A stretch of DNA of 64,000 bases from an uncultured Acidimicrobiia bacterium (lineage in GTDB: Bacteria; Acidobacteriota; Terriglobia; Versatilivoradales; Versatilivoraceae). Made by a program: the position numbers and the translations under genes. The DNA lies in contig CAWBAT010000003.1 of assembly GCA_963786955.1 (NCBI GenBank), forward strand, positions 64,001-128,000. Direction: 5' to 3'. Below the pieces are notes generated by a model. It was not told where the DNA came from and searched no databases. It saw only the letters and a program-made list of their open reading frames with translations. Shown here one piece after another: positions 1,148-32,771 of this stretch; the first letter of the stretch is position 1, and the number at the start of each line of letters is the position of its first letter.

Positions 1148-2376
1148 TTATGATCTGTGCTGAAGTGATTGGCCTGTTGGGTCGCCTGGCCCCAACCACA
1201 CTGTGAGACGTCGCCGGAGCCTATGCCGCATAGGCTCCTCGACGAGCAAGAAAGCCAGAATTGACACACCAATGGCAACGAACACATATGCGACAAACAA
1301 TGGCCAGGTGTTTGGCGATTCGGCCCTAAACCAAGCCCGAGAAATAAAATACGTCCAGAAAATAAGTGGTATATGGAGCAAGTAAAGTGCATAACTGGCG
1401 TTCCCTAACAGCACCATCAACCGCGAAGACAGGACTTTTGCTAGCAGTCCGCCTCCCAAAGCTAATCCGAAAATAAGCAGGGCGTTCAACGGTGCCACCA
1501 GACTTCGACTCTGCGTTACGGGAAAGGGATACTCGGAACTGAAGGCAACAGCGGCGACCATCAAGCCTAGCCCCACTAGCGAAAGGGTTCCACCCAACTG
1601 GCGCAGCTTGACTTGGTTCGCCGGCGGATCGTCGCCGTGCAAGAGGTACAGCCGACCCAAGAGAATCCCAATCACGAAATCCGGCAGTCGCAAAAGCGGA
1701 TTCATTTGCACTGCTTTGATCAGTAGTGGCATTGCTGACTGATCCACGATTCCGCGTCCGTCTGGCCCTATGATCTGTGCAAGCACCGGCGGAACTTGTG
1801 CCGCCACCCAGACAACCAACATGGAGACCAGCAATTGCAATCGCGTGAGTGCTCGTAAACGCCGTAGCAACCAAGGAAAGCACCAGTAAAAGAACGTTTC
1901 ATCGGAAAGTGACCAAGAAGGGAAATTCCACCACCAAGCGGTTTGTGGCAACCAGGATTGAACTAAACAACCCACCAAGACCGTTGCTGCTATCTTCGAG
2001 AGTAGCGGAGTTCGATCATTGAGCGAGAGGTCTCCGAGGAGCTGCGGGATTGCAATGACCAACCCGAGCAGATAAACCGGGTAGACACGAGCCAGTCGCG
2101 CGGCCCAAAACTGCTGATCCGCAACCCGGCATCCGCGCTCGCGGTCGAGGTAGTTGTACGTTAGGATGAACCCCGACAAAAGAAGAATAGACTGACACTC
2201 AAGTCTGCGTGCCAGGCGACGTTCTGGATCCACACCGGCACGCCAGGCAATTGACCCAAACCGGCATGGAAAATCAGAACGTGAAAAGCCGCGAGAAAAC
2301 GTAGTCCAGTCAATGCTCCCAGACGGCTTTCTGGGCGCTTTTGAACAGCTGGGGAGTAGTCTTTTCCTTGGCCCAT
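1148..2376 (-). CDS. Acyltransferase-3 (OafA-like) membrane acyltransferase, frameshifted near 2170
   Basis: LTGLRFLAAFHVLIFH, LSGFILTY, RLARVYPVY, WSLSDETFFY, LGNASYALYLLH and VEEPMR, spread across ORFs 2161..2376 and 1148..2233. Confidence 0.88.
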
Positions 2377-2588
2377 CCGAGATTATACCGCGCTATCGAG
2401 TTTCCAGAGTCGCATTCACAAGATATTTTGCTATGAATACTTATGACACGATGAAATATTCACGGATCGGCGGACAACGGTTTTCGAAAAGCTTCCATCC
2501 CGGTAATATCCCAGAGATCTTTCTTTTCCGGCAAATTGGAGCGCGAAAGAGCGTAAACCTCATCCTTGACCCGCGCGTGAACGCAGCT

Positions 2589-2646
2589 GGCGGGGTTGCT
2601 GCCCGCATCTCATTGGGTTAGCACACGTTGCCACTTGCTGATGGAA
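2589..2646 (-). repeat. Degenerate 58-bp copy of the cstA 3' end (direct repeat with 4461..4518)
   Basis: Manual ungapped alignment gives 52/58 identity. It translates SISKWQRVLTQ*DAGSNPA versus cst[20 protein letters not shown]. Confidence 0.85.
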
Positions 2647-3585
2647 CGCCTGAAGATTGGAGAAGTTTCTCAGATTCGGTTCGATAGAAACCGAAGCGGG
2701 CATTGTCGCCTACGAGCCAGAAAGCCAGCGCCTGCTGCAGCGTGCCTTCTGTCCAAACGGTGTCGCGGTCAGTATTCAGATCGAACCCTGTCACTTGTTT
2801 TTTCCCCGAGTAGCGCTGCGTAGCTTTGGTGTAGGACTCCACCCAGAAACTGCCGTTCGAATAGCCCGCCCCCAAAACTTGCGTCCCGAGCGCCTGGGCG
2901 TCGGTCACGATCGTTGGATCGACCTTGCCCGTCAAGAACCGCGTTCCATTCCAACATTCCCGAACCAGGAAATCTCGAATCAGCATGGCTCGACTCCCGT
3001 AGGCAGGCAAATTCTGAACCAGAGCGAGATTGGAGATGGCTGAGTAAGCAGCCAGGTTGTTTTCGGTGCTCTTCCAGGCAACACCAGGCCGGGCAAGAAC
3101 CCCGCGTCTGTGCTGTCCTGCAACGTGACCAGGAAGTCAGCAATCCCCCGCGCAATACTGTCGTAACGGTGGTCACCCGTTCGCCATGAGAAGAGATTCA
3201 TCGCCTGAAGCAGGTATGCATTGTGTCCTGTTGCCAGAATGCCGCCCGCACTGGCGCCTGTGGTTTGGTAGCGATGTAGAAACCCGCCACCTGGAGCCTG
3301 GCCAATCCCGACGAATCCATCCAAAACACGTTGTGCCGAGAGGCGGTCTCCAGCTGAAAGAAAGGCCATCGCGGCAAGCGCATTGTCATATGTGTAGGAA
3401 TAGTTAGTTCTATCTTCAACGAACGAATCCAGGAGGCCGGCGGTTCCCATGCGACTCCTTAGAAAATCTAGGGCCGCCTCGCCGGGAGTCGCCCCTTGCA
3501 ATCCCCGCGGAATTGACATCAAGCCAACCAAAACAATCACTGGACCCAGGGGGAGTTTGAGGAAGTAAGACCGACAGGTATTCAT
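2618..3585 (-). CDS. Secreted protein, possibly six-hairpin (alpha/alpha) glycosidase-like; frameshifted and apparently 3'-truncated
   Basis: Signal-like N-terminus and motifs YTYDNALAAMAF and VWTEGT. Two ORFs (2980..3642, 2618..3010) join by a frameshift, and the frame ends inside the cstA-like repeat. Confidence 0.5.
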
Positions 3586-3841
3586 TGATGCACCATTTCT
3601 ATCAACATCAAGTTTGCAAGGATAGGATTCCGACCAGACCAAACCAGGGTTGTGAGGATCAAGTTACAATTAGGCTGCCTCAGTTTGAATTGCTTTGAGT
3701 AAAGAAGAGCAGTTTGAGGAACCCGTTTCGAATGAGAGAGTTAACTGCTCAACCATTTAACTGACCCAGTAGAGCCATTCACGGGTTAAGAGAAAAACTC
3801 TTCCACCTAGCAGAATGAACTAACCCTAAGGCGTCCTTGAT

Positions 3842-4439: not shown

Positions 4440-6266
4440 CTAGAGAGGCTCTACAGGGAGGGCGGGGTTGGTGCCCGCATATCTTTGGGTTAGCACACGT
4501 CGCCATTTGTTGATGGAATCCACCAAGACAATGATCAGGCAAACCATCATGACAGCAGTCAGAAATACGTTTAGGATCCCTTGAAAACCCTCTCCCGGAA
4601 TTGGGCTCCGGGCAAGGGGTAGAAAGTTATCCACGATGCTGAGATAGCCAGCAGTCAACGTCGTGCTGGACACAAAACATAAGGGGAGGAGGGTCACCAG
4701 CGCGAATTTCGCTCTTCCCATGTTGATGATGAAAGTGGTTCCGACGCACAGTGCAATGGCTGCCAATAGCTGATTCGAAATTCCAAACATGGGCCAAATC
4801 GTGCTGATGCTGCCTGTAAAGATGAAGAAGGACCAACCGCTGACGACAAGCACACTGGAAAGAATCGTGCCTGGCATCCAGTCGGTCCTCCCCATCGGTT
4901 TGTAAAATCGGCCAATAAATTCCTGAACCAGAAAGCGGGCGACCCGCGTGCCCGCATCGATCGTCGTCAAAATGAATAAGGCTTCAAACATGATGGCAAA
5001 GTGATACCAATAGGACATGAGCCCTTTCATGCCGGGGATCGCTGTGAAGATTTGAGCCATCCCCACTGCCAAAGAGACCGCTCCTCCCGGCCTTCCGGTC
5101 ACTACTTCACCTACCTCGCGTTCCAGTTCCGGAAGATTCACGACACTGAGTCCGAGATGAGAAAATTTCTCGGGGGAGACGTTGATCGCGAAATAGTCTC
5201 CAGGGAATAGCGCTGCGGCAGCGATGAGGGCAGTCACCCCGACCACGCCCTCCATTAGCATTGCCCCGTAGCCGATCGGTCGAATGTGAGATTCCAAAGA
5301 GATCATCTTAGGAGTCGTCCCAGAACCCACCAGAGAATGAAAACCCGAAATCGCTCCACAAGCGATCGTGATGAACACGAAAGGAAACATCTTTCCCGGG
5401 ATGATGGGTCCACCCCCGTCTACAAATTGACTGAAAGCAGGCATTTTCAATTGGGGATGGACAATGAACACTCCCAGGATCAGGAAAGCGATCGTCCCAA
5501 TCTTCATGAAAGATGAGAGATAATCCCGCGGACAAAGCAGCATCCAGACAGGCAAAACCGAGGCAGCCAGGCCATAGATAGCCAAACAGAGCGTGATTTG
5601 GTCCTTAGATAGGGTGAAGAAGCTTCCGAGAGGTGATCCCGGGATCAGTTTGCCACCTATTACGGCGAGGCTTAGTGCTACAACTCCGATGATAGTGGCC
5701 TCCCGAGTCTTGCCGACTCGAAAGCGAAACATGTAGAACCCCATAAATATGGCGATGGGGATGGTTGTGGCAATCGTAAAAGTTCCCCAGGCGCTCTCCT
5801 TAAGTGCATTAACGACAGCCAAACCTAAACCAGCCAATGCAATGACGACAATAAAAAGGATCGCCAACGCCGTGGTAAATCCTGCTAACGGTGAGATTTG
5901 GTTCCGTGCAATTTCAGCCAGCGATTTCCCATCACTGCGAACGGATGCAAACAGAATGACGAAATCGTGCACGGCCCCTGCGAGAACCACTCCAATGACC
6001 AACCAGAGTAATCCTGGCAAGAAACCAAACTGGGTAGCCAGAACCGGTCCAATTAAGGGGCCCGCCCCTGTAATTGCGGCAAAATGGTGACCAAAGAGGA
6101 CCCATTTACTGGTTGGATAATAGTTTTGTCCGTCATACAAACGGTAAGCAGGAGTTTGTCTTGTATCGTCTAAGACCAGTACCTTGGTGGCGATGAAGGC
6201 ACTGTAGTAGCGATAGGCGATCGCGACAACGCAAAGCATTCCGAGCATTAGAGGCAGGGCATTCAT
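4440..6266 (-). CDS. cstA: Carbon starvation CstA-family transporter
   Basis: [58 protein letters not shown]. Likely start MNALPLML at 6266. Confidence 0.96.
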
Positions 6267-6288
6267 GTGATTACTCCGTATGGCTCGA

Positions 6289-7086
<798 letters not shown>

Positions 7087-7273
7087 CGTCGATACAGAAA
7101 TTCTTTTATTGGCCTACAAGGATATCCTGTTAGAAATGTCGATCTCAAGACAGGAGATCATTTTAGCACAGTCCAAGATATGGATTGCGAACGTCGATCA
7201 ATCCGGTTAATATTTTGCGCTTCAGATGGGAGTCAGATTCTCATCTGTCTAGCAGTCAGGAGCCAAAGATTTT

Positions 7274-8119
7274 ATGTCCATTCGCCATATCACGGTTGCC
7301 CATAGCCCCGATTCTGACGACGCATTCATGTTCTATGCTCTGGCAACCAATAAAATTAAAACCGGGGATTTGAAATTTCGACACGTGCTCAGCGACATCG
7401 AGACCCTTAACCGAAAGGCCATGGAAGGTGAGTACGATGTCACGGCCATTTCATTCCATGCCTATTCCTATTTGGCAGACAAATATGCTTTCTTAAGAAC
7501 AGGAGCCAGCATGGGCGATCGATATGGCCCCATCATCGTGGCAGAAATGCCCATCAAGCCTCAAGACCTGAAAGGCAAGATTATCGCTGTCCCCGGATCA
7601 CTGACAACGGCGTTTCTGGTGCTTAAACTATTCGAGCCGGATTTCACGCCCTTAGTAGTTCCATTCGACAAGGTTTTTGAGAGTGTCTTAAAACAAAAAG
7701 CCGATGCGGGGCTCGTCATTCATGAGGGGCAATTGACATTTGCAGATTCGGGTTTGCACAAGGTTGTTGACCTCGGCGAATGGTGGCAGAAAGAGACTCA
7801 GTTGCCGTTGCCGTTGGGAGGAAATGTCGTCAAGAAGGATCTCGGACCTCAGCTCATTTCCGAGATTGGACGCTACCTTCGACAAAGCATTGAATACGCC
7901 CTGGATCACCGTGAAGAAGCGTTGAATTATGCCCTGCAATTTGCGCGAGATATGGAAACTCATTTGGTCGACAAATTTGTCGGGATGTACGTGAACGAGC
8001 GCACGCTCGACTACGGTGAAGCGGAATGCCGGGCAGTCCAGTTACTGCTCGACATGGGGTATGAAAAAAGAGTGATCGACCACCCCGTTAAATTTGAATT
8101 TGCGGAAGACCCCCTCTAG
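7274..8119 (+). CDS. mqnD: 1,4-dihydroxy-6-naphthoate synthase (futalosine menaquinone pathway)
   Basis: AHSPDSDDAFMF, DIETLN, LVIHEGQ, DLGEWW, LPLPLGG, GMYVN. Confidence 0.92.
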   Translation: MSIRHITVAHSPDSDDAFMFYALATNKIKTGDLKFRHVLSDIETLNRKAMEGEYDVTAISFHAYSYLADKYAFLRTGASMGDRYGPIIVAEMPIKPQDLKGKIIAVPGSLTTAFLVLKLFEPDFTPLVVPFDKVFESVLKQKADAGLVIHEGQLTFADSGLHKVVDLGEWWQKETQLPLPLGGNVVKKDLGPQLISEIGRYLRQSIEYALDHREEALNYALQFARDMETHLVDKFVGMYVNERTLDYGEAECRAVQLLLDMGYEKRVIDHPVKFEFAEDPL

Positions 8120-20397: not shown

Positions 20398-23300
20398 ATG
20401 CTTACATACCCTCTCAATGTATTGTTTCAAGAAGTCGGGACACCAAGTTTGAACCGGCATATACGTTGGGTCTTCAGCTTGCTAGGGGTGTTGTTTTTCC
20501 TTCAGTCGGTACTGGTCGCTGATCTGTGGGCTGGGGAGACTCGTCCTAAACCCAAGCCCGCTTCTCTTTCTCGAGAGATTCTCCTCAGTGGCGAAGATTG
20601 GAGGCTGGGGGCCTTCCCCTTCGAAGAAGGCGAACGTCGCGGAGTTAACGCGGCAAAGTTTGATGACAGCGGGTTTAGAACCGTCAAAGTTCCAGGCGAG
20701 GTCCAGCTGCAAATTGGGCTCAAGGGGATGGATCTTTACTACCAGAGCAAAGAACTGACTCTGGTAAACGAGAAGGAATGGTGGTACCGCAAGCAGTTCG
20801 TCGCTTCACCAGAATCAGCCGGTAGAGTCGTGCGTCTGATCTTTGATGGGGTGGATTACTTTGCAACCGTCTGGCTCAATGGGGAAAAACTTGGAGAGCA
20901 TGAAGGCTGCTACGTCCCCTTTTCATACGACGTCAGTTCCAAGTTGAAATTTGGTGGCGAAAACCAGCTAGCAATAAAAGTCACTTGTCCCTGGGTTCCC
21001 AAAGGACGAGGCTTCCTGGAATATATGAAGGGAGAATGGACGTTGGTTTCTCCCGGGAATATCATGCGTTTCCCTTTCCCACCCTTTATTCTAGGTCCTT
21101 ACTGGGATGGGATCCCCGCCGCTGGGAACGCGGTTTTTCCAATGGGACTCTTTCGAGATGTGAAGTTAGTCGTTTCGGGACCGATCGTAGTCGGTGATCT
21201 TTTTGTAAACACGAAGTCGCTTAATCCTGATGGTAGTGCAACGCTCGGAATTTCCGGGGTGATCGCCAACTTTGGGAAGCAAGACGCCTCGGCTACATTA
21301 GATTTGAAAATTACGCCCGATAATTTCACCGGCGATCCCATCCCGTTACCCAGACAAAGTTTGACAGTTCATCCGGGCGAGAACAATTTTAGCGCAGAAG
21401 TCGTCGTCAAGACCCCTCAATTGTGGTGGACCTGGGATCTGGGTGCGCAGAACTTGTACAAAGCAACCGCCACGGTGGCCCCATCAGGGGGAAGTCCGGA
21501 GACGAAGGAAACGGTGTTTGGAATCCGGACTATCGCCCGAAAAGAAGATATGAGTTATTGGCTGAATGGCAAGCGCCTTTATCTAAAAGGCGCCTGGTAT
21601 CCGATGGGCGATTACTATGGAAGCAAACCGACACGCGAGACCTATGAAAAAGATCTCGAACTGTACAGGGCCGCCAACCTGAATCATCTGGTTGCCTTTA
21701 CGGTTGTTGAAAAACCAGATTTTTACGACCTGTGCGACCGACTCGGCATCCTTGAGTTCTTTGAGTTTCCTTTTGAACAATTTGGGCCGATAGAGGTTTT
21801 GTCTCACACCAACCCGCGCCGCGAGACTTTTGTCCAAGAGTCGCTTCGCCAGGTTCGACAGATCCTCATTCAGCTTCGAAATCATCCTTCAATCATCGTA
21901 TGGGCAGCTTTTGCCGAGGCTCGGATGAGTGGCAAAGGGTGGGGAGTCGGAGAGGAAGATTGGGAGCAGTATGGCTACAGCAAGTATTCGGAGGATATCG
22001 GCAAGCTGGTTGCAGAATTGGCTCCTGGAACCATCTATCATCCGAGCCTTTGTGATGTAGGGGAACAACACTTCTGGATGGGCAATTCCGGGATGGGAGT
22101 TACCGGAACTTATTTGGAACATTTCAATGCCAACACCGGATTTGTCTCCGAGTATGGAGGCATCGCCATTCCCGCTTATGAGAGTTTGAAAAAAATACTG
22201 TCGCCCGAGGACATGTGGTCTAACCAGAACTTGACTCTTCCTCAGTGGTACAACCTCCCAATCAATGTGCCGGCATACTCTTATCATACGAGTTTTGAGT
22301 ACAACGGTTTTGCGAGCGTGCTGAACCGGGTCCATAAGTTTGTGGATCGCAACATCAAGTCGGTTCAGGAACTCATTGATGACTCCCAACTCTATCAAGC
22401 ATTCATCTTTAAATATGCGACTGAAGGCTATCGCCGGAAGAAGTACAACTCCATCAACGGGACCCGGATCTGGGCCTACGGCGAAGTAACGCCCGGAATT
22501 CGTTTCAATTTTCTGGATTACTACCGGGTGCCCAAGATGGGTTACTACTTCCTGAAGAGAGCTCAGGAGCGATTCGCCATTAATTTTGCCTATGAAGAAG
22601 CCTTGGAGTCTCAGGTGTCCGGCAAGTCTCTGCGGATTCCTGTCTGGGTCATCAACGATTACCGGCAGGCGGTACCCTTTGAAGTTCACTGTGAAATTTT
22701 GGATTTACAGGGGAAAAAACTTTGGAGCCAGGACTTTCCCGGGACCGTGGACAGTGATGGAAGCAAGGAAGTCGGAATCGTCGATTGGGTAACGCCGGAT
22801 ACTCCTGGAGTTTATGTTCTGCGAGGCCGGGTTGTAGGAAAGGGAGAAGGGAATTGGGTCGCTGAGAATTCGACCTTCATCAAGGTGACTCCGAAACTTT
22901 TCGCTCGCCCCTTTAATGTGCTCCTCATCGGAGAACAAAAATACAACCCTCCGATTGCGGCCATGCTCCGTGCAGTAGGGGTTCATGTGGATGTGATTCA
23001 GGAGAACTCTGTCTTCGATCTTGCTCAGCTGCGGAATCCGGGAGAAATCCGGAAGCGGTATGACGTGGTTTGGCTGGCATGCTTCGATTCACTGTGGAAA
23101 ATTCTGGACAATGAAATGGCCGAGGGATTGAAACAGGCCATCCAAGAAGGAGTCGGGTTCATCCATACCGGCGGGCCAGGAAGTTTTCATGGAGGCTTTG
23201 GCCGGGCTGCTTTGCTGGATGTCCGGCCGCTGGCGGAGGTTTTGCCGGTATCGCTTCACAACCGCAACGATGCCGTTTTCGGGCAAGTCAAAGAAGCATA

Positions 23301-24074
23301 TCAAAACTTCTGCTGACATCTTGGCCCAGTCCTTCCTGGAGATTAAAGACATTCAAGTGGCAGGAGACGCAGGGCAAGGATTGAGTGACACTGAATGGAA
23401 GCTGTACGGCCTGCCCGGGTTTAATAATGTGGAATTGAAACCCGGCACAAGACAGCTACTCACAATCTCAGGACGGCCACTGCTGGTGATGGGGCAGTAC
23501 GGGAAGGGGAAGACTGTCGTTTTCACGGGATTCACCCCAGTCTATTCGGAAAAAAAATCTCCCTGGGACCCCAAACTTAACGCTCCGTATGCACTGGATC
23601 AGGAATTTGTTACCCATCCCGTTACTAAAGCCTATTTTGACCTGTTCGTGAGGGTGATTGCGGCTGCTACTAGCCGAGAAGCCAGTGGGAGATTTTGGCC
23701 AAATCCTAAGCATGCGGGAAAAGCCATTGTTTGAAATGCTGCAAGACCAGGCACCCGCAACGGTTAACACGGCGGATTCAGTCAAGGCTACGGCTTCGGG
23801 TAATCGGGCATCCACATCTTTGAATTTTACCAACGGAACAAAATACGCACGCTTGATTCGAGTCCGCGCAGAATGGGACGAGGCCCAGCCCGGGAACCCT
23901 TATCTCATCCTCTACAAGGACAATTACTTCGATTTAATGCCGGAAGAAAGCAAGTCGCTCGCTCTGGATCTATTCCTGCCGCCGGGCCAGGGAAGGCAGG
24001 TTCACGGCCGGCTGATTGTAGAGGGAAGCAATACGTCGCCACGGGAGATTCCAATCACAATCGATCGCAAGTAA
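20398..24074 (+). CDS. GH2 beta-mannosidase-like glycosidase with C-terminal class-I-GATase-like and Ig-like domains; frameshifts near 23290 and 23670
   Basis: FDGVDYFATVWLNG, FGIRTI, FYDLCDRLGI, RNHPSIIVW and FVSEYG. C-terminal GVGFIHTGGPGSF...LAEVLPV and DNYFDLMPEE. Confidence 0.85.
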
Positions 24075-24115
24075 ACGACCCAAATCTTTCCTCCGCGAAG
24101 GGGAGTCGCCTCAAT

Positions 24116-24257
24116 TCCCCTCCGCTGGAGGGAAGCTGTGAAAGAATTGGCTGCAGCGGCGCTCTATGAGCGCCATTTCTTTTCATTTCAACGGCCTGAC
24201 CGGCGCTCATAGAGCGCCGCTACAATTTCTTCACACTTTAGGGGTGCAGGGGTGGGT
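24116..24257. repeat. Nested REP-like elements
   Basis: Inverted pair gcagcggcgctctatgagcgcc / ggcgctcatagagcgccgctac with outer arms tgtgaaagaattg / caatttcttcaca. It is flanked by ttcccctccgctggagg and ggggtgcaggggtgggt. Confidence 0.6.
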
Positions 24258-24273
24258 CTCAACCTCGTAATCA

Positions 24274-25347
24274 TCACTGTTTGATTCTCGAGAAGTTGAC
24301 TCGAATCCCGGTAGTGAAAAGGATGTCATTGTTTTTGCGGCCTTCAACCGGGTTGCTTTGGTACCGATCGCTGAAGGTCAATTGCCAGGCGAGCAACTTG
24401 GTCAAGGTAGTTACGGTACCGAACTCAAAATTAATTCGGTACTGTCCCAGATCTGTCATATTCGGGAAGATCCGGAGAGCCTGGGTAAGAGACGTAGCCT
24501 TAGAGATTTTATGGGTGAGAGTATTACCAAAAGATAACTCCGCTGAATTCCGGGTCAACGGGGTTGAGTATTTCTCACGATTGTAATCGGCTCCTCCGAG
24601 CAGATCCAATCGGGTCCGTTCATTCTTGATGACACTGTAGCCAAGGCCTCCTCCGATGACGAAGCGCAAATCCAAATCCTGGAACTTGTCATATTCATAA
24701 TTGTTGAAGATGTTGACGAACAGGCGAGGGCTCAAGTTTTTATCGTAGGCCCAACCTCCGAGGATGGCTTGGGCGGTGCTTGCCGTTGTCCCGTCGACCA
24801 GTTTTCCGGTTGCGTAGATCTGGTTAAAATAGGCTATGGTCTTGTCTGTGCGGGTTACGCGCGAAGCGTTCATGGCAGAGTTGATTGTCGTTGTGTCGGC
24901 GTTCCCGCGGGCAAGGCTGACGCCTAGATCCGCATAACCGGTCCAGAGGTTGAAGATACTGGGATGTTGCAGCCGTTCGTAGGCTTTTTGCTCATCCGTA
25001 TTGCGAATGGCAGAAACGCTGGCAAACGGGACGGATTCTCTCGTAGTCGGCGTGGTGACCTCCAGCTTATTGTCTTGAGTGTCTACTTTTCCCAGAACCG
25101 ACTTCCCGTCCGGTAAGACCACGGTTACGTCCTCATCCGAGGTAACCTGTTCGACTTTTTCCCACGGAATTGTGACCTCTCCAAATACGCTACTCTTAAA
25201 GGCAAGGCTGGCTCCATCCTTCTTCAGGATTTTTCCAGACACTCGGTCGCCGTTCTTAAGTGTCACTTGATCGGCCCAAACCAGGCAGACAAAAAAAGGC
25301 AAAATAGCAATCGACAGTTTTCTTGAAATCATGATCAATGGCCTCAC
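24274..25347 (-). CDS. DUF481 outer-membrane beta-barrel protein
   Basis: Signal peptide, ADQVTLKNGDRVSG, GVSLARGN, YEYDKFQDLDLR, amphipathic strands and C-terminal TGIRVNF. Confidence 0.85.
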   Translation of the reverse strand: MRPLIMISRKLSIAILPFFVCLVWADQVTLKNGDRVSGKILKKDGASLAFKSSVFGEVTIPWEKVEQVTSDEDVTVVLPDGKSVLGKVDTQDNKLEVTTPTTRESVPFASVSAIRNTDEQKAYERLQHPSIFNLWTGYADLGVSLARGNADTTTINSAMNASRVTRTDKTIAYFNQIYATGKLVDGTTASTAQAILGGWAYDKNLSPRLFVNIFNNYEYDKFQDLDLRFVIGGGLGYSVIKNERTRLDLLGGADYNREKYSTPLTRNSAELSFGNTLTHKISKATSLTQALRIFPNMTDLGQYRINFEFGTVTTLTKLLAWQLTFSDRYQSNPVEGRKNNDILFTTGIRVNFSRIKQ

Positions 25348-25674
25348 TTTGAAATTTGAAAAGCGGAATGGGTCACTAAATTCTAGATCAGGTTGTAGGA
25401 ATTGTACGTGGTTGGATGCGGATTACCTTCCCCCCCGAATGAATGGGGTCGAAGTCGATTAGTGGATTGTGATCGTGGCGAAGTGCGGATAACGGAACTC
25501 TATTCCAAAAAGTTGCCTACCAGGGAGAGAAGATTCGAAGGTGCAGGAATAATTAGAGCTGTTCGGACGATCCCCTGATGAACAGCCCAGCTCTCTTCCA
25601 AAACGATCATACGTTTTCTCATTTGTTGTACCCGGTTTGCAGATCATTCTGCAAACCCCTATTTGGCCTCAATC

Positions 25675-26397
25675 TCAGGCTGTGGCTGTCCGGATGGTTT
25701 TGCGACGACGAGCTCGCTTGATTCCATATTTCGTCATTTTGTTATAGAGAGTCCGACGTGGAATCTCCATGAACTGAGATGTGCGGGTAACATTCCAATG
25801 ATTCTTTTCAAGAATCGCAGTCAATTGCTGACGCTCAATCTCGTCAATCGTCCGCTCAGCCAAAAAATCGCTTACTGATATCGTCGGTACTTTCAGATCC
25901 ATATCAGGGAATTTCTGCCCATGCAGCAGCGCCTTCGTCACCAATTTCCCAAACCGAACCAATCTTTCTTTATCGAGAGAAGTGAATAATCGGGCATTCG
26001 TCGTGCTGTCGAGATAAAGAATCCCACAAAAGGATCCATCGACGCGCAAGGGAACGGAAGCCAACGAGAGGGTATCGATCCACTTGAACGCCGCAGTCTT
26101 TCGAAACTTCTCTTCCTTGCGAGTGTCGGGAATATAAATGACATTCGGATTGTTGCGGAGCTCTGCCAGATAATGGTTACAGACTACTTCGATCGTCTTA
26201 ATGGACGCCGGATCCCCTCCAATAAAGGCTCTCGGATCCAAATTTCCTTCTGCATCTAAGACGAAAATAGCGCCTCGCTCAGAGTTTGACATCTTGACAA
26301 CCACAGACAAGAGCTTCTGGAGCAGCTTCCCCGGGACTAAAATACTCTCTACCAAATCCGATATTTGATCAATCAGCTCAATTTTGGTTTCCTTCAT
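25675..26397 (-). CDS. GAF domain plus Fis-type HTH regulator, no AAA+ domain
   Basis: GAF motifs SERGAIF, SLASVPL and GILYLDS...FTSLD. C-terminal EIERQQLTAILEKNHWNVTRTSQFMEIPRRTLYNKMTKYGI. RBS ggggga upstream. Confidence 0.85.
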   Translation of the reverse strand: MKETKIELIDQISDLVESILVPGKLLQKLLSVVVKMSNSERGAIFVLDAEGNLDPRAFIGGDPASIKTIEVVCNHYLAELRNNPNVIYIPDTRKEEKFRKTAAFKWIDTLSLASVPLRVDGSFCGILYLDSTTNARLFTSLDKERLVRFGKLVTKALLHGQKFPDMDLKVPTISVSDFLAERTIDEIERQQLTAILEKNHWNVTRTSQFMEIPRRTLYNKMTKYGIKRARRRKTIRTATA

Positions 26398-26671
26398 GGA
26401 CTAATTTCCCCCTTTTCTTCACGGAATTTGTGATTATCATATTCCCTGTGCAAGAACCGACACGGTATTATACCATTTGAACAGCCTCTCTTAAAAACAA
26501 CCCATTTCTTTGAAGACTCTTTCTTGATCGGAAAACTGAAGAACCAGGAGCTATTCGAAAGGAGAACGGAAGTAATGATCCGCGCCCCATAGTCTGCTAG
26601 ATCAACGTTCCGAGTACCCCGTATTTTACACCTAATTAACTTTCCACAATCAACAATAAAAAGGAGAAAAA

Positions 26672-27334
26672 ATGAGATCGAAAAACGTAGTTCTCATCAT
26701 TGGGTTAGTGTTTCTTGGAATATGTGCTAAAAATAGCACCTGTTTAGGTAAGGTAATAAGCACACAAGCGTCACCACTTTCTCGATACGCCGGACCGAAC
26801 TCGATCGGCCCGTCCAAGCTTTTTGCTGGGCCTGAATTGACACGATCTGCCGAATTGACAGTTCGAGACGGCTCTGAGGGGATTCCGCCACAAGCTCTTT
26901 TGATCAGAGATGGCTCCGAAGGGATTCCGCCACAAGCTCTTTTGATCAGGGATGGTTCGGAGGGGATTCCGCCACAAGCTCTTTTGATCAGGGATGGTTC
27001 GGAGGGGATTCCGCCACAAGCTCTTTTGATCAGGGATGGTTCGGAGGGGATTCCGCCACAAGCTCTTTTGATCAGGGATGGTTCGGAGGGGATTCCGCCA
27101 CAAGCTCTGTTGATCAGAGATGGCTCTGAGGGGATTCCGCCACAAGCTCTTTTGATCAGGGATGGTTCGGAGGGGATTCCGCCACAAGCTCTTTTGATCA
27201 GAGATGGCTCTGAGGGGATTCCGCCACAAGCTCTTTTGATCAGGGACGGCTCCGAAGGGATTCCGCCACAAGCTCTTTTGATCAGAGATGGCTCTGAAGG
27301 GATTCCGCCCGTTGCAAATTTGAGCATTGGTTAG
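26672..27334 (+). CDS. Secreted multi-copy peptide precursor (signal peptide, pro-region, 11 x RDGSEGIPP)
   Basis: RBS aaggag at 26661-26666, N-terminal MRSK plus a hydrophobic stretch, and synonymous-only repeat variation in this frame. Confidence 0.85.
   Translation: MRSKNVVLIIGLVFLGICAKNSTCLGKVISTQASPLSRYAGPNSIGPSKLFAGPELTRSAELTVRDGSEGIPPQALLIRDGSEGIPPQALLIRDGSEGIPPQALLIRDGSEGIPPQALLIRDGSEGIPPQALLIRDGSEGIPPQALLIRDGSEGIPPQALLIRDGSEGIPPQALLIRDGSEGIPPQALLIRDGSEGIPPQALLIRDGSEGIPPVANLSIG
26864..27310 (+). repeat. 42-bp tandem repeat, 10 full units plus 1 partial
   Basis: Unit (a/c)g(a/g) ga(t/c) gg(c/t) tc(t/c/g) ga(g/a) ggg att ccg cca caa gct ct(t/g) ttg atc, counted by hand. Confidence 0.97.
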
Positions 27335-27484
27335 ATCTGGGTTAGAGAGTTAGCTAATTGCTGGTAGAATCGCTCTCGTATTTCTTCAAGTCGCAGGGGC
27401 TTCCAGGAAAATCCTCACGTGGGGCAGGGAAGATTCCGACGAATCTTCCTTTGCCCTAACAAGGATATACGGGATTATCAGGGT

Positions 27485-28198
27485 ATGAGCGGACTCCAGC
27501 AGGCAATCGCAACGATTGGTCAGGTGATTCACTTTTTTCTCCTCCTGATTGGATTACGTCACCAACGGTTCCGGAGGTGTATTACCTTCTATTTATACCT
27601 ACTGGTCTCATTCATTTCCTCTATTGTGATTTCTTATCTTGTAAGCGAAAAAGAGTTGAGGAGGCAACTTTACTACCTCAAAGAGTTTCTATTGGATTTG
27701 ATTAAGATTGGAATGCTCATTGAGTTAAATAAGAATATTTTTGGTTTTTTCCCGAAAGTCCAACGGTCCAACCGAGCCTTATTTGGCATAACAGGCATCC
27801 TGTTTGTTGTCTACGCGTTTGCGTTGCCTGCGGAATCCAGAACTTGGTGGGGGTCTCTTCCCTTTGATTTACACTCTAAAGTGTTGCAAACTACGTGCTT
27901 AGCCTACTTGATGATGGTGTTTTCAGCGCTTTATTATCGCATTGAGGTCGCAACAGATTATAAGTTTCTGCTGGTTGGATACTTGTTTTCGCAACTGCCT
28001 GTTGCTCTAGGGTTTGCCTATGTTGCAATCGCTGGGGAGGCCGCAAGGAATAGAGTGAGTCTATTGAACTCTATATTCTTTGTGCTTGCAATGGTCGTCT
28101 GGACGAGAGTATATTGGGCAAATGATAAGGATACTGATTCCCCTGATATTATTGGCCGTGGGGTGGATCTTCCTGTTTCTTTTAGGGCGCCGGAATGA
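27485..28198 (+). CDS. Seven-TM integral membrane protein of unknown function
   Basis: About 237 aa from MSGLQQ, with seven hydrophobic segments by eye and a short polar tail. No kinase or enzyme motif. Confidence 0.75.
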   Translation: MSGLQQAIATIGQVIHFFLLLIGLRHQRFRRCITFYLYLLVSFISSIVISYLVSEKELRRQLYYLKEFLLDLIKIGMLIELNKNIFGFFPKVQRSNRALFGITGILFVVYAFALPAESRTWWGSLPFDLHSKVLQTTCLAYLMMVFSALYYRIEVATDYKFLLVGYLFSQLPVALGFAYVAIAGEAARNRVSLLNSIFFVLAMVVWTRVYWANDKDTDSPDIIGRGVDLPVSFRAPE

Positions 28199-28844
28199 AC
28201 GTAAAGTGCGCTCAGAATGGCACGCCCTGCTAAGTCCTCGAGGACAAATTCTATTCGAATCTGCCCGCAAAGAAGTTGAATCCCATTCCTTAATGCTGGA
28301 TGTAGCCATGAACGAAGCGTTAAGCATCAAGAAATTGGGTGATATTGATGAAGCCATCCGATTCTTGAATATAGGTTGTGAGGTCATTGAAAGATTTACT
28401 CCAGATCTTCTTTCTCTGCTATCCGTCATGGCTAAGTTTTCAAGGATGGTTAGCGCCATAGCACCTGTTGAACCGCTTGTTCCCAAGGATTTTCATCTGG
28501 CAGAGTTAGTCAGTTTGGCGCACCTTCACAGGTTAATGAACCAGGTCGTTGTCTCTACAAAACAGCGATTTCGCATGAGAATTTACATCCTCGGCAAGGG
28601 AATATCGATCGCCAGCCGTTATTTGATTTCCAAGATCAAGGATATCGTCGTGACCAAAAGCCAGGACCAGAAGGAATGGCGGGAAATTGTTGAAATCGAG
28701 CAAGATTTCAATACACTGTCACGCGAGTCTCTGCAGAGTTTTCGTACTCTTCTCGAAGTCTTGTCTGGCGAAGATGCTCGGAGGTTATCGCAAGACCTGT
28801 GTATTAAGACCGCTTCAACCCGCCAGACAAATCACGTCGCATAA
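28122..28844 (+). CDS. N-terminally membrane-anchored alpha-helical hypothetical protein
   Basis: MIRILIPLILLAVGWIFLFLLGRR anchor followed by about 215 aa of charged amphipathic helices. It overlaps the 7TM gene by 77 nt. Confidence 0.72.
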   Translation: MIRILIPLILLAVGWIFLFLLGRRNERKVRSEWHALLSPRGQILFESARKEVESHSLMLDVAMNEALSIKKLGDIDEAIRFLNIGCEVIERFTPDLLSLLSVMAKFSRMVSAIAPVEPLVPKDFHLAELVSLAHLHRLMNQVVVSTKQRFRMRIYILGKGISIASRYLISKIKDIVVTKSQDQKEWREIVEIEQDFNTLSRESLQSFRTLLEVLSGEDARRLSQDLCIKTASTRQTNHVA

Positions 28845-29198
28845 TTTCCTCTACCCTAGCAGGGCTTTCCCTACGCTCGTCAATCTTTCCAGTCCCTGAC
28901 ATTGAAACTATCCCCAATTTGCCAGTTCATGATGGCCAGTTATAGCACTCCGATTTCAATGGATGTGCCAAGAATAGATCAAATATTCGTAAGCTATCTA
29001 TGGTAGATTCCGATAACTTTCTTGTGCCTTATAAATGACCAAGGAAGTTCTATGCAAAATTCTTCCAGGCTTCACTCAATGTTCTTTAGCCGAAATTGAG
29101 GAGGCGGAAGTTCTGGTCATTAAAAGTAGTGTGAAACTGTTTCGTGATCAGACATGTTTTGGCACACGAGTGAATAGTGCCGAGAGAATAGGAAATTT

Positions 29199-29986
29199 GT
29201 GAGTGAGTCGAGACTTAAAATATTGGTTGTCGACCATGAAGATGCGGAATTTTTGCGCGCTTCCGTAAGTCTCTTTGGCGAAGCGGGGTTCAATGTTGAC
29301 TCATGTTCCGATTGGGACGCCATGCAAAGGAAACTCAACCCCTCGGTTCGGACTACGGATATTCTGATTATGGACATTACCTGTTTTCAAGACCGGGATA
29401 GCTACCTCCTGTTGATGGAACTCCGGGGAAAAGAATATACCAAGGACCTGAAGATCATTCTCACAACAGATACCCTTGTGGAGGAGTTATTGCTGCGGAC
29501 TCGTCGAGAGTTGGGAATTGTCGCCTCGTTTAATAAGAAGCGGCCTGTAGAGGAACTACTCTACGTCCTCACGAACATTTTTCCGCCCAGCGGTGAAAAT
29601 TTGCGACGCTCCCGAAGGGTCCCGGCTCGTTTCTTGGTCCAATCCTCTTTGGAGGGTAAGACCAAAGTACTCTGTGCAAGGAATCTAAGTCGAGACGGTA
29701 TTTTCGTTGAAAACCATATCCCCGACCCGGTTGGAACTGCGGTTGAACTTTCGTTTACCCTCCCGGGAGAAGCTCCAAACTGCTTGTCAAAGCGAGAGTT
29801 GCCCGGGCGACTGCTGGCTCTCAAGTTACAAAACAAGAAGTATTCCCAGCCGGGAATGGGTTTGAATTTGTTGATGTTTCTGACGTTGACGCTCGCTTCT
29901 TGAAAGAATACTTGGAGCATGAGGAATTGAGAATCTTTGGTTCTGATGAAGAGCCCAGTCCAACGCAAGCCTACACTGGGACATAA
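29199..29986 (+). CDS. Response-regulator receiver plus PilZ domain protein, frameshift near 29780
   Basis: REC motifs KILVVDHED and DILIMD. PilZ motifs RRSRRVP and NLSRDG, continuing LVKARVAR...GNGFEFVDV...LKEYL in another frame. Confidence 0.82.
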
Positions 29987-30116
29987 TTCGAAAGCGGAGC
30001 TGACGCAACAGGGCTAGTCTTGCGGGGATGATAGGGGATTGCAAATCATCGATGGGTTCATAGAGTTCCTAACCTTTCTGGTATACCGTTCCCGGCTTTC
30101 TCCAATGCCTCCATCC

Positions 30117-32164
30117 CTACACTCCTCCAGCGAAGTGGAATAACCCGAGTCGTCCAACATGGAAGCGATTCACATTCAAAGCTCCAGAGCCATAAAGATT
30201 GGCCATGGTCATTCCACAAGGTGACGTGGATCGATGGAAATTTGGGTTGTGCGTCGCTGGCAAATTCAACAATGGGCCAGGCTTGCGGAATTCGCCCGCC
30301 ATTTCACCGAGCAGATCCCGTTTGAAATACTGACCCGTTGCCGCCCGAGGGGTATTTCCTGAAAAAGACCACTTCAGGGTGAGCGCATTAATGTCAACTT
30401 CGATGTTCATATCGGCATAAGCACCAGTCTTGTCGAAGCCGAAATACTTCTGCCATGCTTCCAAATCCAGAATTAAGGGTGGCGTAACCAAGAAAGCCAA
30501 TTCAGCCCGCGACCCAATGGCTGTGTCTCTTCCATCACCTCGCCCCAATCTTTCTGATAGAGGTTTCCCTCCACGGTGTTGTCAGGATTAGAAAGGTCGA
30601 TAGCCTTGCCACAGTGGTAGAAGACATTGTCTAAGACTTTATTCCGGCGCGTCGTGCCGCCACGCGGTCCGACGATCCGCCCCTCGATGTTCCTAAATTT
30701 GATGCCAGCGTCCTGGGTATAGCCGATCAAGTTATGGGCGATAATAGTTTCGTCGCTCCCATCCACTGTGATCCCCCATCCGCCATGGGGAGACATGTTG
30801 GGTGAACCTCCGCCCTTGCCTTCGGTCGCCTTCCAAATGATGTTGTTATCCAGCATGTTGGGGAATTGCGAGGCTTCCAGATAGATTCCGCCTCGCAGAG
30901 TTTCCAGGTTGTCACCCATCACGTTCCCAGTGACCCTTGTATTCGTATTCTTATAGTCGAGCCAGATCGCTTCCGCATGGACCGTATGGCGAATGACATT
31001 GTTCCGCAACAGACAGTCCTTGGTTAATGTAGTTTGATGCCTCCCGTCTCCCAAGATAACTCCACGTCCTGATAACCCACTTGTTCGATGAGGTTCCCTT
31101 CGACAAGCGTATCCTGCACGCCCATCCCTGCTAGCCCGCACACACCGGCGTCAATGATGTGATTTCGGCGCACAATGCTGTGCCCAATAACCTCAGGGTA
31201 TTCCATATCCCAATCCTGCGCACCGATATCGAGTGCGACACTATTGGCGTGCCGCAGCACGCAATCCTCGAAGATCCAGAAATTCCCGCGGCTTGCTGAC
31301 ACCATTCCCCGCTGCGGGACCGGAAACGCGTTGGCAGCGTGTTCAAAGGCGATACCTTTCACCCGGATGTAACTCAGTCCCCGCGTCCGTGGGGCCAGTA
31401 TCTGCTCCTGGATTGTCAACTCGATCTCGTGCTGGGCAGGGTCAGCATCCCCGGAAAGCCGCAGATGGATTGTCAAGCCCGTCGTGCTCACACCAGAAGG
31501 CTCCGTCTTTCTTAGCGAGCTCCTGATAGAGTTCTACTTGCTCCAGCCGCTTCCCATCGACGAAAACCATCCCACGCCGAAGCAGGTGCTGTCTCAACTC
31601 TTCCGGCTTGGGCTTCAAGTACACACGGTCTTGCATAATGTTTACCATGCCAAAGGGGTTGTAGCCCTGGAAATCAAGGTCGTCCAGACGTCGCTCGTAA
31701 ATTTTCACTATGGAGCGAGGCGGCGGGTGAGGGCCCAACTTGTAACTTGTGGAAATTGCCCAACCGGTCTTCACTAGCCGAGAACCTTTGATCATCACAT
31801 TTGCGCCAGGAGCAGATTCGTAACTGATCATCTTGTCGGGGCCAGTGCCGCCGCGTCTTGGATCCACAAACTCCCGATAGACGCCACTCATGATCACCAC
31901 TCGCTCGCCGGGTTGCAGTACCTGTGCAGCTTTGTTTACGGTGGAAAAAGGCAGTTCTGTCGTGCCCGGGTTCGTGTCACTTGCGCGAGGGTTTCTATTG
32001 TCCACATAGTAGGTCCTGGAAAATTGGAGCGGTTTTTCCCAGGAAACAAACTCTCGCCCGTCAGGCAGCAGCACACCGGTACCCGTTGGCCCGGCAGTTA
32101 ATGATCCACCAACGAGAATTCTTAGACTGAGGGCAGCAACAAGCAGCATTCGCCAGCTAATCAT
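30117..32164 (-). CDS. Secreted right-handed beta-helix protein (DUF1565-like N-terminus), frameshifted
   Basis: YYVD...ASDTNPGT..PFSTVNKAA..LQPGE...GVYRE, GGIKLH, and AIWLD with parallel beta-helix Asn ladders. Confidence 0.82.
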
Positions 32165-32771
32165 TGCAGGCAGTTCTACTTGAGGTTTTGTCTGGGACAG
32201 GTATTTCACGCCGGGGATTTGCAGGAGTTTCCTGTTGCCGGGTTTTTGTTTCATTGGATCGCGAGCTCCTTTTGAGGCGTAAACCGCAAGACATTTATTG
32301 GTTTATCGTTGTTAATGCAAGCTTCTGCCAGCGTGATTTCAGTCTAAAGAAGCATTCAGTTCATCTTTTGCTAATGCAGCGGAAGCCTGATTTCATATCT
32401 TCGAGCAGTTTGGGGACATTAATGACAGCTTTGGAGAGTTCTCTCCTTAGGGTTAGATGCGGAGAGTGGACATTCAAAACCCCTGCTCTTGACTCTGGCT
32501 TCGCTTTCGGCAAGGTCATTTGCCGCGGCGAAGAAGTAAAGAAGAGAATATGATGTTTTCAATAGAGGTTGCAATCTTTAGCTGAGAAAAGGAGATAGAA
32601 TTTATTGTCGGATAAGGGGTGTGCGCGCACAGGGAAGGAATATTAGTTCCGCCCCACAGTTATCGAAATGTACAATAATAAGATTTGAAAATTAGACCGG
32701 CAATTCTCAGTCAATCCCATGGATAATATTCTTGAATCACGTAAATGATAGCCGAGGGGCTTTACTTTAAA

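Follow-up and report, generated by a model that had tools for sequence, protein, structure and literature searches.

The 64,000-nt stretch of DNA analysed here, which we call the window, carries a compact gene set that is best explained as a four-gene sensory module specific to Acidobacteriota. Its members are a GAF-Fis regulator, a repeat protein with the build of a secreted precursor (REP), a stand-alone seven-helix membrane protein (7TM) and a single-pass helical membrane protein (ANCH). We tentatively propose, giving it somewhat less than an even chance, that these genes form a loop, in which a peptide ligand in the periplasm is sensed by 7TM and an adaptor links this sensor to a transcription factor. 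Coordinates of the locus are positions in the window, and the genome of the window is labelled G000 in the comparisons. A first-pass annotation of this DNA had placed five genes here, the fifth being a REC-PilZ protein, and the list of open reading frames (ORFs) together with the sequence puts all five where it had them.

The REP gene (26672-27334, + strand; ORF and translation) encodes a protein of 220 aa and is preceded by the sequence AAGGAG at 26661-26666, 5 nt before the ATG. The deduced protein starts with a signal-peptide-like N-terminus (about residues 1-19, basic and then hydrophobic), which is followed by a spacer of about 45 residues and the repeat array (26864-27310, + strand). As read from Tandem Repeats Finder (TRF) and a table of the units, the array consists of ten full 14-residue units, DGSEGIPPQALLIR, and a final eleventh DGSEGIPP core; Arg precedes each of the 11 cores (R-DGSEGIPP), and the last is followed by VANLSIG in a short tail that is not a transmembrane (TM) segment. 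TRF gives a period of 42 nt, 10.5 copies and 93% matches. The eleven identical cores in a secreted-type precursor, the central observation of the first-pass annotation, are thereby confirmed, and their DNA copies vary only synonymously. Among the ten full units there are six variable columns, all at third codon positions and all synonymous in the + frame, for which the chance of six out of six third positions is about (1/3)^6 = 0.0014 by our own arithmetic. Because all six columns are synonymous, the array is kept as a peptide and not as a DNA repeat; it is under selection as protein. No Pfam or NCBIfam family matches REP. An antisense ORF of 225 aa that runs through the repeat (26650-27327, - strand; unit GGIPSEPSLIKRAC) was rejected as a repeat artefact or by-product: a K/N change makes one non-synonymous difference between its units, and it has neither a start context nor orthologue support. 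A lipoprotein reading of REP was likewise dropped, its L-G-I-C presumably not being a canonical lipobox.

Orthologues of REP, which occur in other genera too, share the signal-like N-terminus, the 14-residue period and the core D-G-x3-[IV]-P-P, and differ in their linkers. The orthologues read include DGVDRIPP in three copies (G001), DGPEEIPP in seven (G007), DGAEPIPP in nine (G006) and DGGGPIPP in ten (G016); the precursor of G014 has two cores, and copy number within the genus of the window is 11, about 9 and 3. Precursors with a single core are 45-65 aa long and carry it at the extreme C-terminus. All core sequences that were read are acidic or neutral, unlike cationic antimicrobial peptides. 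The residue before the D/E-G core is most commonly Ala (35 of 73 distinct units, some of these matches being spurious), and in two distant loci (L068 and L076) DG comes directly after an A-x-A type site, which together suggest a common cleavage point. The arrays of G002 (L016, 6673-7233, - strand) and G004 (L018, 5390-5936, + strand) change reading frame several times. In G004 the switches fall at runs of five versus six C, and the core can be read in all three frames by turns; these are probably assembly indels, with slipped-strand switching as the alternative.

The 7TM gene (27485-28198, + strand) starts with an ATG 150 nt after the REP stop codon and encodes a stand-alone protein of 237 aa, for which the AlphaFold2 (AF2) model has seven helices at a mean confidence (pLDDT) of 79. 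That this protein lacks a kinase domain was noted at the outset and is confirmed; it lacks any Pfam or NCBIfam domain. A profile search with hidden Markov models collected 241 representative relatives at E ≤ 0.001, 30 of them at 1e-10, nearly all stand-alone proteins of 225-255 aa. Neither the window protein nor the 45 relatives examined match a Pfam family, and the ESM Atlas returned only clusters named 'hypothetical protein', commonest in Acidobacteriota. The suggestion that 7TM belongs to no known transporter or enzyme family thus holds against Pfam and NCBIfam, and its predicted structure resembles only bundles of the G-protein-coupled receptor (GPCR) type. In a VIA-align search with the model, the top 50 rows are all GPCR-type seven-helix receptors (Z 13.1-9.9), led by the GPCR domain of LYCHOS/GPR155 (Z 13.1, root-mean-square deviation 3.4, 183 aligned residues) and followed by the oxytocin receptor (Z 12.0) and then by adhesion, class C, Frizzled and secretin-class receptors. 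GPCR classes carry their own motifs, such as DRY at the end of TM3 and NPxxY in TM7. Both are absent from the 7TM alignments A1 and A4, in which TM3 ends in E-L-N/x-R-x-F and TM7 in W-x-x-V/A-Y/W.

Basic residues cluster in the loops after TM1, TM3 and TM5 of the family (alignment A4), which by the positive-inside rule puts the N-terminus outside and the C-terminus inside. Only G165 and W206 are invariant throughout the family, indicating that it has no catalytic set. Conservation is uneven across the membrane: the cytoplasmic half has a family-wide mean of 0.578 versus 0.404 for the outer half, 23 of the 25 best-conserved positions lie in the inner half, and in 13 of 16 sister pairs identity is higher for the inner half than for the outer. 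The clade with the shared DG-x3-IPP core shows equal conservation of the two halves (0.83 and 0.80). Judged from these alignments, the asymmetry suits a receptor whose ligand face varies while its signalling face stays constant.

The ANCH gene (28122-28844, + strand; 240 aa) overlaps the 7TM gene by 77 nt, which confirms the overlapping single-anchor helical protein described before. From the alignment and the AF2 model, ANCH consists of one N-terminal TM helix, a basic stretch (RRNERKVRS) and a domain that is modelled as all-helical (pLDDT 77). The position of the basic stretch after the TM helix places that domain in the cytoplasm under the positive-inside rule. Its structural matches are generic helical bundles only (talin rod, Z 13.2); it has no Pfam or NCBIfam family, and its profile (A2) found only chance-level rows among the PDB sequences. 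The regulator gene (25675-26397, - strand), divergent from the precursor operon, encodes a 240-aa protein with Pfam matches to HTH_8 (E 4.8e-11, residues 184-224) and GAF (E 1.8e-6, residues 24-157). It has no AAA+ domain, NifA/NtrC-type models matching its ends only and far below cut-off in Pfam and NCBIfam, and no TPR domain in Pfam.

These four genes recur together. Loci were sorted into three types by tblastn with regulators and partners, and type A, the combination of GAF-Fis regulator, precursor, 7TM and ANCH, comprises 28 loci in at least two classes of Acidobacteriota. The regulator is present in 27 of them, ANCH in 26 and an upstream peptide gene, as counted by eye, in 25. This synteny bears out the first-pass annotation in treating the three central genes as a unit. 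Its doubt about the two flanking regulators was half right: the GAF-Fis regulator is, by its recurrence, a core member of the module, and the REC-PilZ protein is not a member. A 7TM query matched 14 of 41 related genomes (G000 included) and 10 of 24 from the same family. The order of divergent regulator, REP, 7TM and ANCH is kept in G002, G001, G004, G007, G006 and G016 (five genera); in G014, where a contig end cuts the locus, the two-core precursor, 7TM and ANCH are present. Matches in G008, G010 and G019 lie on very short contigs and were left out of the context comparison. The 7TM profile matches strongly only within the family of the window (10 of 30 genomes) and weakly in two other families. 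With a broader profile, matches extend to 36 of the 401 genomes of the phylum, among them 20 of the 33 from one family. In G655, which belongs to another class, two loci combine a GAF/HTH_8 regulator and an ANCH homologue with precursors carrying DGMTGIPP three times and DGGSGIPP two to three times.

A pattern scan of a species-genome collection with a 10-row alignment (A7) added 17 loci, all in metagenome-assembled genomes of Acidobacteriota or Vicinamibacteria. In these Vicinamibacteria-type loci the regulator is always present (17/17; divergent in 15 and co-directional in two), and ANCH is found in 16, the missing one lying at a contig end. Their cores include DGGGGIPPHYS (4-5 copies), ADGSTGIPPHY, MDGGNGQPP and AEGGAAFPTY (three copies each), AEGIKG[MF]PP (6-10) and AHGFTSGPP (7-8), and MDDPYPPPKP followed by the stop codon is an example of their single C-terminal cores. 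The absence of an adjoining maturase, protease or transporter, claimed for the window, holds there in Pfam. Among 140 neighbour ORFs from 20 loci, Pfam shows no recurring protease, ABC exporter, outer-membrane factor, C39 peptidase or enzyme for peptides that are made on ribosomes and modified after translation (RiPPs). A prolyl oligopeptidase (S9) gene (1713-3761, - strand) lies about 2 kb from the 7TM in locus L099 of G433, where the precursor ends in nine prolines; as a single case it is only a lead towards a processing enzyme.

More distant 7TM genes stand in a comparable setting. In these loci the 7TM gene is always followed by one for a 175-200 aa protein, often with overlapping stop and start codons, which has one N-terminal TM helix and a helical cytoplasmic part. 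No relation of this partner to ANCH could be detected (hhalign probability 2%, covering the TM helix only), and the two are alike in build only. The first-pass annotation had proposed to look for a peptide ORF upstream of 7TM homologues, and ORFs with hydrophobic N-termini and proline-rich, DG-x-PP-like cores are indeed found there. A fixed rule was applied: an ORF of 30-240 aa ending between 450 nt upstream of the 7TM start and 60 nt inside it, with a hydrophobic window at the N-terminus, a Pro content of 12% or more, and a PP or PxP motif. By this rule 35 of 63 loci are positive, versus 3.4 expected when every other position in these loci, and their opposite strand, serves as background; a stricter rule gives 20 of 46. 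The 35 of 63 is a lower bound, because the rule misses frame-shifted arrays, several Vicinamibacteria precursors and all leaderless forms.

The upstream proline-rich ORFs have one to eleven cores. Fifteen loci have three or more copies of a unit, and from one lineage to another these units show no sequence relation. Examples of the upstream ORFs are arrays of ADGGSPVPP (four copies), VPIGPVHLPPP (six) and VPMNPFPTG (five), an array of eight 24-residue units, single cores that run out into 8-10 prolines, and cores with two Cys (L068, L076, L071, L085 and L086). At L062 of G163, four tandem 39-codon precursor genes (about 800-1430 of the oriented locus), each with a signal peptide and a core containing APPPTPHG, lie upstream of the 7TM gene; multiple copies have arisen here by gene duplication and not by internal repeats. 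At L096 of G093 two tandem 7TM paralogues (5777-6571 and 6638-7432) follow one six-core precursor, and G032, of the same genus, has four matches.

Type B loci combine an XRE-type helix-turn-helix (HTH) protein of about 268 aa, a 140-aa protein and the other partner family. The XRE protein is found in 14 loci (L023, L049-L051, L090, L092-L095, L098, L099, L101, L103 and L105), the 140-aa protein in 12 of these and in a fifteenth locus at a contig end, and the partner, by tblastn, in 8 of the 14. Neither the XRE nor the 140-aa protein has a Pfam family above cut-off, the C-terminal domain of the former being unannotated, and the XRE-HTH protein has no TPR match in Pfam and no sequence relative in the PDB. 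No locus mixes parts of types A and B, and partner type and regulator type switch together. Type C, which is family f4, consists of six loci (L047, L048, L052, L024, L053 and L054), in which tblastn with the type A and B regulator queries found no regulator. Its ORFs start directly after a conserved Shine-Dalgarno sequence and read M-x8-12-G-x-P-[WMF]-P-x-PP, one of them with four tandem cores. A tree built from 43 7TM proteins unites type A in a clade with good support (97/95), and the cores of sister 7TMs resemble each other; the cores therefore follow the 7TM phylogeny, as had been suggested as a check.

Between REP and 7TM lies a strong stem-loop (27411-27466, + strand; inner 15-bp stem 27420-27458, from RNA folding), and the fold of 27300-27500 has a z of -3.2. 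A GC-rich hairpin of -22 to -33 kcal/mol occurs at the same place in seven of seven family-f1 loci, its place conserved and its sequence not. With 40 shuffles per locus, none reached the observed energy in four loci and one to three did in the other three. No U tract follows the stem-loop in the window. The hairpin may thus act as a partial terminator or as an mRNA-stabilising element that uncouples the levels of precursor and receptor. An Rfam scan of 24000-31000 returned four rows (E 0.24-0.62), all far under their gathering scores. An in-frame GTG at 27419, 66 nt upstream of the 7TM ATG, would add 22 residues (27419-27484). This GTG falls within the hairpin, and most changes that G002 shows in the extension are non-synonymous, which favours the ATG at 27485 as the 7TM start. 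The divergent control region (26398-26671), between regulator and REP, was read from a same-genus alignment. It contains two blocks conserved among the three same-genus genomes (G000, G002 and G001), at about 26398-26464 and 26622-26671; the latter is the REP leader, the 50 nt before the REP start being near-identical in the three. The middle of the region has diverged among them. A promoter-like site lies on the - strand at 26494-26467, and an operator search for inverted repeats in the region found none.

We favour the loop for its linkage, the anatomy of the precursor, the absence of an enzyme or transporter signature, the GPCR-like model, the adaptor-like partner and the ever-present transcription factor. 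REP would be exported by Sec and, in the periplasm, would present or be cut into many copies of a short acidic proline-rich peptide with the core D/E-G-x3-[IV]PP, which in the window is DGSEGIPP in 14-residue units. This peptide would be the cognate ligand of the adjacent stand-alone 7TM, a GPCR-like bundle with no output domain, which would work with the translationally linked ANCH. The cytoplasmic helical domain of ANCH would then serve as adaptor to the soluble GAF-Fis transcription factor, whose control of the divergent promoter region would give a self-regulating loop, and the hairpin after REP would keep precursor message above receptor message. We infer export, cleavage, binding, the adaptor role and control by the regulator, as well as the reach of the signal, between cells or within the producer's own periplasm. 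A hormone-like design in the full sense, in which a polyprotein yields peptide copies for a stand-alone GPCR-fold receptor that acts through a single-pass adaptor on a soluble transcription factor, is possible but rather doubtful. Of the ligand-receptor-transducer interpretation first given to this locus, the conserved central unit, the upstream peptide ORFs and the lack of a transporter or enzyme match all speak in favour, and the part that involved the REC-PilZ protein has fallen away. A complex prediction of 7TM (A1, residues 1-215) with three repeat units (A5) gave a score of 0.00 in a run without controls, and it counts neither for nor against binding.

Several observations weigh against the loop. 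It fails to explain the leaderless type C peptides and the three type A loci (L115, L117 and L089, of 28) that have no peptide gene between regulator and 7TM. The peptides of family f4 are leaderless in all six loci, 20-25 aa long and without a hydrophobic N-terminus, so they could not reach the outer face of 7TM by Sec. In a diderm, delivery by Sec ends in the periplasm, and neither an outer-membrane export route nor a conserved protease lies nearby, none recurring among the 140 neighbour ORFs scanned in Pfam. The junctions of the units have no conserved classical processing site, and in the window Arg, not Ala, precedes DG. The structural likeness also calls for caution: a Z of about 13 is at the level where, as the tool itself warns, helical bundles can match by arrangement alone, and Foldseek found nothing in the PDB at E ≤ 0.001 for the 7TM model, its non-significant top rows being GPCRs and two rhodopsins. 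The 7TM profile (A4) gave only chance-level rows against the PDB sequences, with no match to a GPCR chain. The outer face also changes faster in the peptide-less pair L115/L089, and such a trend is common among membrane proteins. Cores that track the 7TM tree are expected anyway for adjacent, co-inherited genes, and the joint switch of regulator and partner may be a single evolutionary event. Finally, three RNA libraries and one DNA run yield contigs over parts of 25600-29000, one RNA-library contig spanning the divergent promoter. RNA libraries can hold DNA, contigs show neither transcript ends nor levels, and stretches without cover are uninformative; no expression claim is based on them.

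Three membrane or periplasmic proteins so tightly linked could also form one complex, in which the proline-rich protein is a fixed subunit or tethered regulator of the 7TM and single-pass pair, for instance in a sensor of envelope state, with the repeats providing multivalency or spacing. Vicinamibacteria-type precursors, whose hydrophobic N-termini run into W-L-E-R without a clear A-x-A and may be uncleaved anchors, are consistent with this, as are the lack of a nearby protease and the merely periplasmic location that Sec provides. However, a copy number that ranges from 1 to 11 among close relatives (11, about 9 and 3 in one genus) is odd for a fixed subunit, forms with one core are very small and carry it at their C-terminal end, the hairpin points to precursor message in large excess, and the leaderless forms are left unexplained here too; we consider a subunit unlikely. 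The small, fast-diverging peptide gene beside multi-pass membrane proteins and a regulator equally recalls a toxin locus, in which a proline-rich, bacteriocin-like peptide would be produced under the regulator and 7TM with its partner would confer immunity or export. Hairpins after the structural gene are common in bacteriocin operons, multi-copy precursors of proline-rich antimicrobial peptides exist in insects, and the f4 peptides recall leaderless bacteriocins, which need their own exporter. But the cores, whose first residue is a conserved acidic one, have a net acidic or neutral character and are not cationic, the 140 neighbour ORFs hold no recurring ABC exporter, C39 peptidase or outer-membrane factor, the face of 7TM conserved across the family is the cytoplasmic one, which immunity does not require, and neither PADLOC (chance-level rows only, no match for REP) nor Pfam points to a toxin. 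A toxin is, on this evidence, improbable. The tandem identical cores, the variable linkers and the leader-then-core build would further suit a multi-core RiPP-like precursor, with 7TM, ANCH or both as an undescribed maturase, protease or exporter; two Cys occur in the core of some lineages (L068, L076, L071, L085 and L086), and both membrane proteins lie outside known families. We nevertheless regard such a precursor as very improbable: the window contains no maturase of a known family and the neighbour ORFs no recurring one, 7TM has two invariant residues (Gly and Trp) and no catalytic set, the ANCH domain is a plain helical bundle, and a Sec signal peptide is unusual for cytoplasmic maturation.

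The two remaining explanations deny the peptide a role as ligand or product. If REP were an ordinary secreted repeat or structural protein, genuinely linked yet without a direct functional tie to a 7TM that senses something else, its absence from 3 of 28 close loci would be no surprise, and proline-rich repeats are common in envelope proteins. Yet even very distant 7TM relatives have the peptide ORF at the same position and on the same strand, with an entirely different peptide sequence, the enrichment is about tenfold over background (35 of 63 loci against 3.4 expected), and short single-core forms are hard to reconcile with a structural protein, which makes this reading highly improbable. 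The slimmest chance falls to a cis-acting proline leader or arrest peptide, with stalling at X-P-P setting expression of the downstream membrane genes as in SecM, VemP, MifM and TnaC. The combination of signal peptide and proline motif upstream of membrane-protein genes is as expected for such a peptide; the f4 ORFs of 20-25 codons end a few codons after P-x-PP, and single-core precursors end just past the proline run. Against it, some 100 nt separate the end of the window's last core from the hairpin and 175 nt from the 7TM start, distances over which a stalled ribosome could act on neither, and eleven copies, or four 39-codon genes as in L062, are not needed for stalling. Moreover, the conserved D/E-G and the linkers are left unexplained, and the downstream genes are not Sec or YidC components.

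Among known systems, the proposed loop resembles the yeast alpha-factor polyprotein (MFalpha1) with its class D GPCR Ste2 in a signal-peptide precursor with several identical short peptides and in a seven-helix candidate receptor; here this protein is stand-alone, with a bundle modelled as GPCR-like and its N-terminus predicted out, and the Ste2 structure 7ad3 appears in the Foldseek list for 7TM at rank 47, a non-significant position. There is, however, no sequence relation, Kex2-type dibasic spacers are lacking, no G protein is present and the transducer would be the single-pass protein with the GAF-Fis factor, and the host is a diderm bacterium in which export beyond the periplasm is only putative. 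The RRNPP systems (Phr/Rap, PapR/PlcR and AimP/AimR) resemble it in a short Sec-type pro-peptide with the active part at the C-terminus, an adjoining HTH regulator and fast diversification. The single-core precursors of 45-65 aa, which end with the core, have this build, their export and cleavage being putative. The RRNPP receptor, on the other hand, is a cytoplasmic TPR protein reached through Opp import, whereas here a 7TM and single-pass pair takes the place of any TPR protein and precursors can be multi-core. In Agr and ComCDE, too, the gene for the precursor adjoins those for a membrane sensor of the multi-pass type and a transcription factor, and autoregulation is likely, but their sensors are histidine kinases accompanied by a dedicated protease or exporter (AgrB, ComAB), and none of these domains is present here: AgrB, HisKA and HATPase domains are absent from all five genes in Pfam and NCBIfam. 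Nor is there a double-glycine leader, the N-terminus of REP being hydrophobic and Sec-type, or an ABC, C39 or kinase gene among the neighbours in the window, and no such gene recurs in the 140 neighbour ORFs.

Multi-core RiPPs such as cyanobactins and microviridins also have tandem cores in one precursor; here, by contrast, the neighbourhood offers no maturase, protease or cyclase, a Sec-type signal peptide serves as leader, and cores are conserved between genera while linkers vary. The 7TMR-DISM and 7TMR-HD proteins are bacterial seven-helix membrane sensors too, but they carry fused extracellular and cytoplasmic output domains and are represented by Pfam models, unlike the stand-alone, unmatched 7TM. 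Enhancer-binding proteins of the NtrC type carry the AAA+ sigma-54 domain that the GAF-Fis regulator lacks. An exosortase/PEP-CTERM system is not indicated, there being no exosortase match in Pfam or NCBIfam, only Gly and Trp as invariants of 7TM and a non-TM tail in REP. Arrest peptides (SecM, VemP, MifM and ApdA/ApdP) share an ORF with an export signal and a proline motif before membrane-protein genes, and differ in that the downstream genes here are not Sec/YidC and the motif occurs up to 11 times, far from the next start. A full-text literature search, seen as titles and the openings of abstracts, yielded no printed description of the module. Since the defining parts of the known systems are absent, no description was found and three of the four families are unannotated, the module lies outside the known kinds, and the function we give it is a proposal.

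The REC-PilZ gene (29199-29903, + strand) is a neighbour without support as a module member. Its matches are weak and below curated cut-offs (Response_reg E 3.3e-4, TIGR02266 E 2.6e-7), and Pfam has no PilZ match at E ≤ 0.01; by eye we read in it what we take to be the REC acidic pocket with D58, T89 and K113 and the PilZ motifs RxxxR and N-x-S-x-x-G. Among all loci compared, a homologue occurs only in the window and in G002 of the same genus. The idea that the module feeds into a phosphorelay or cyclic di-GMP signalling is therefore unsupported. Three of 20 distant loci have PilZ-domain proteins no more than about 2.5 kb away from the 7TM gene (L090, 3367-4648; L096, 4439-4801; L100, 3190-3744), one of them with an adjoining GGDEF protein; together with the window this is a lead and not a finding, and it could be chance in PilZ-rich genomes.

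Genes flanking the locus in the window are GH2, DUF481 and beta-helix genes (Pfam), of which DUF481 and GH2 also recur only in G002. The GH2-family gene (20398-24074, + strand) has a 972-aa ORF that seemingly continues in two other frames (23189-23734 and 23658-24074), and its G002 copy is frame-broken at another place; these are either frame-shifted genes or assembly indel errors. A right-handed beta-helix gene (NosD/Pel9A-like; 30117-32254, - strand) is split into three or four overlapping ORFs, which suggests frameshifts or assembly indels. REP and 7TM are each single-copy in the 5.65-Mb genome. The DNA runs that hold this stretch are sediment metagenomes, and close 7TM relatives come from sources named 'Terriglobia bacterium' and 'Acidobacteriota bacterium'; one is recorded as from an archaeon, which we take to be a binning problem.

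Acidobacteriota are among the most abundant bacteria of soil and sediment, yet to our knowledge almost nothing is known of how they sense each other or their envelope, and peptide signalling is regarded as a Gram-positive trait. The module is conserved and phylum-wide, and three of its four protein families (7TM, ANCH and the precursor) are absent from Pfam and NCBIfam. Its presumed ligand is encoded beside 7TM, often in many copies, and could be synthesized as a peptide from the sequence; the divergent promoter offers a ready reporter, and cultured relatives with complete single-contig genomes probably carry type B loci. Whether bacteria have GPCR-like ligand receptors without fused output domains thus becomes a testable question. 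Should the ligand reading prove wrong, the locus would still define one new precursor family, multi-core and proline-rich, and two new ones of membrane proteins. If the reading is right, the module would bring a bacterial receptor of a new class and the phylum's first peptide signalling system, built to a design so far known from eukaryotes alone, with hundreds of receptor/peptide pairs already diversified in nature.

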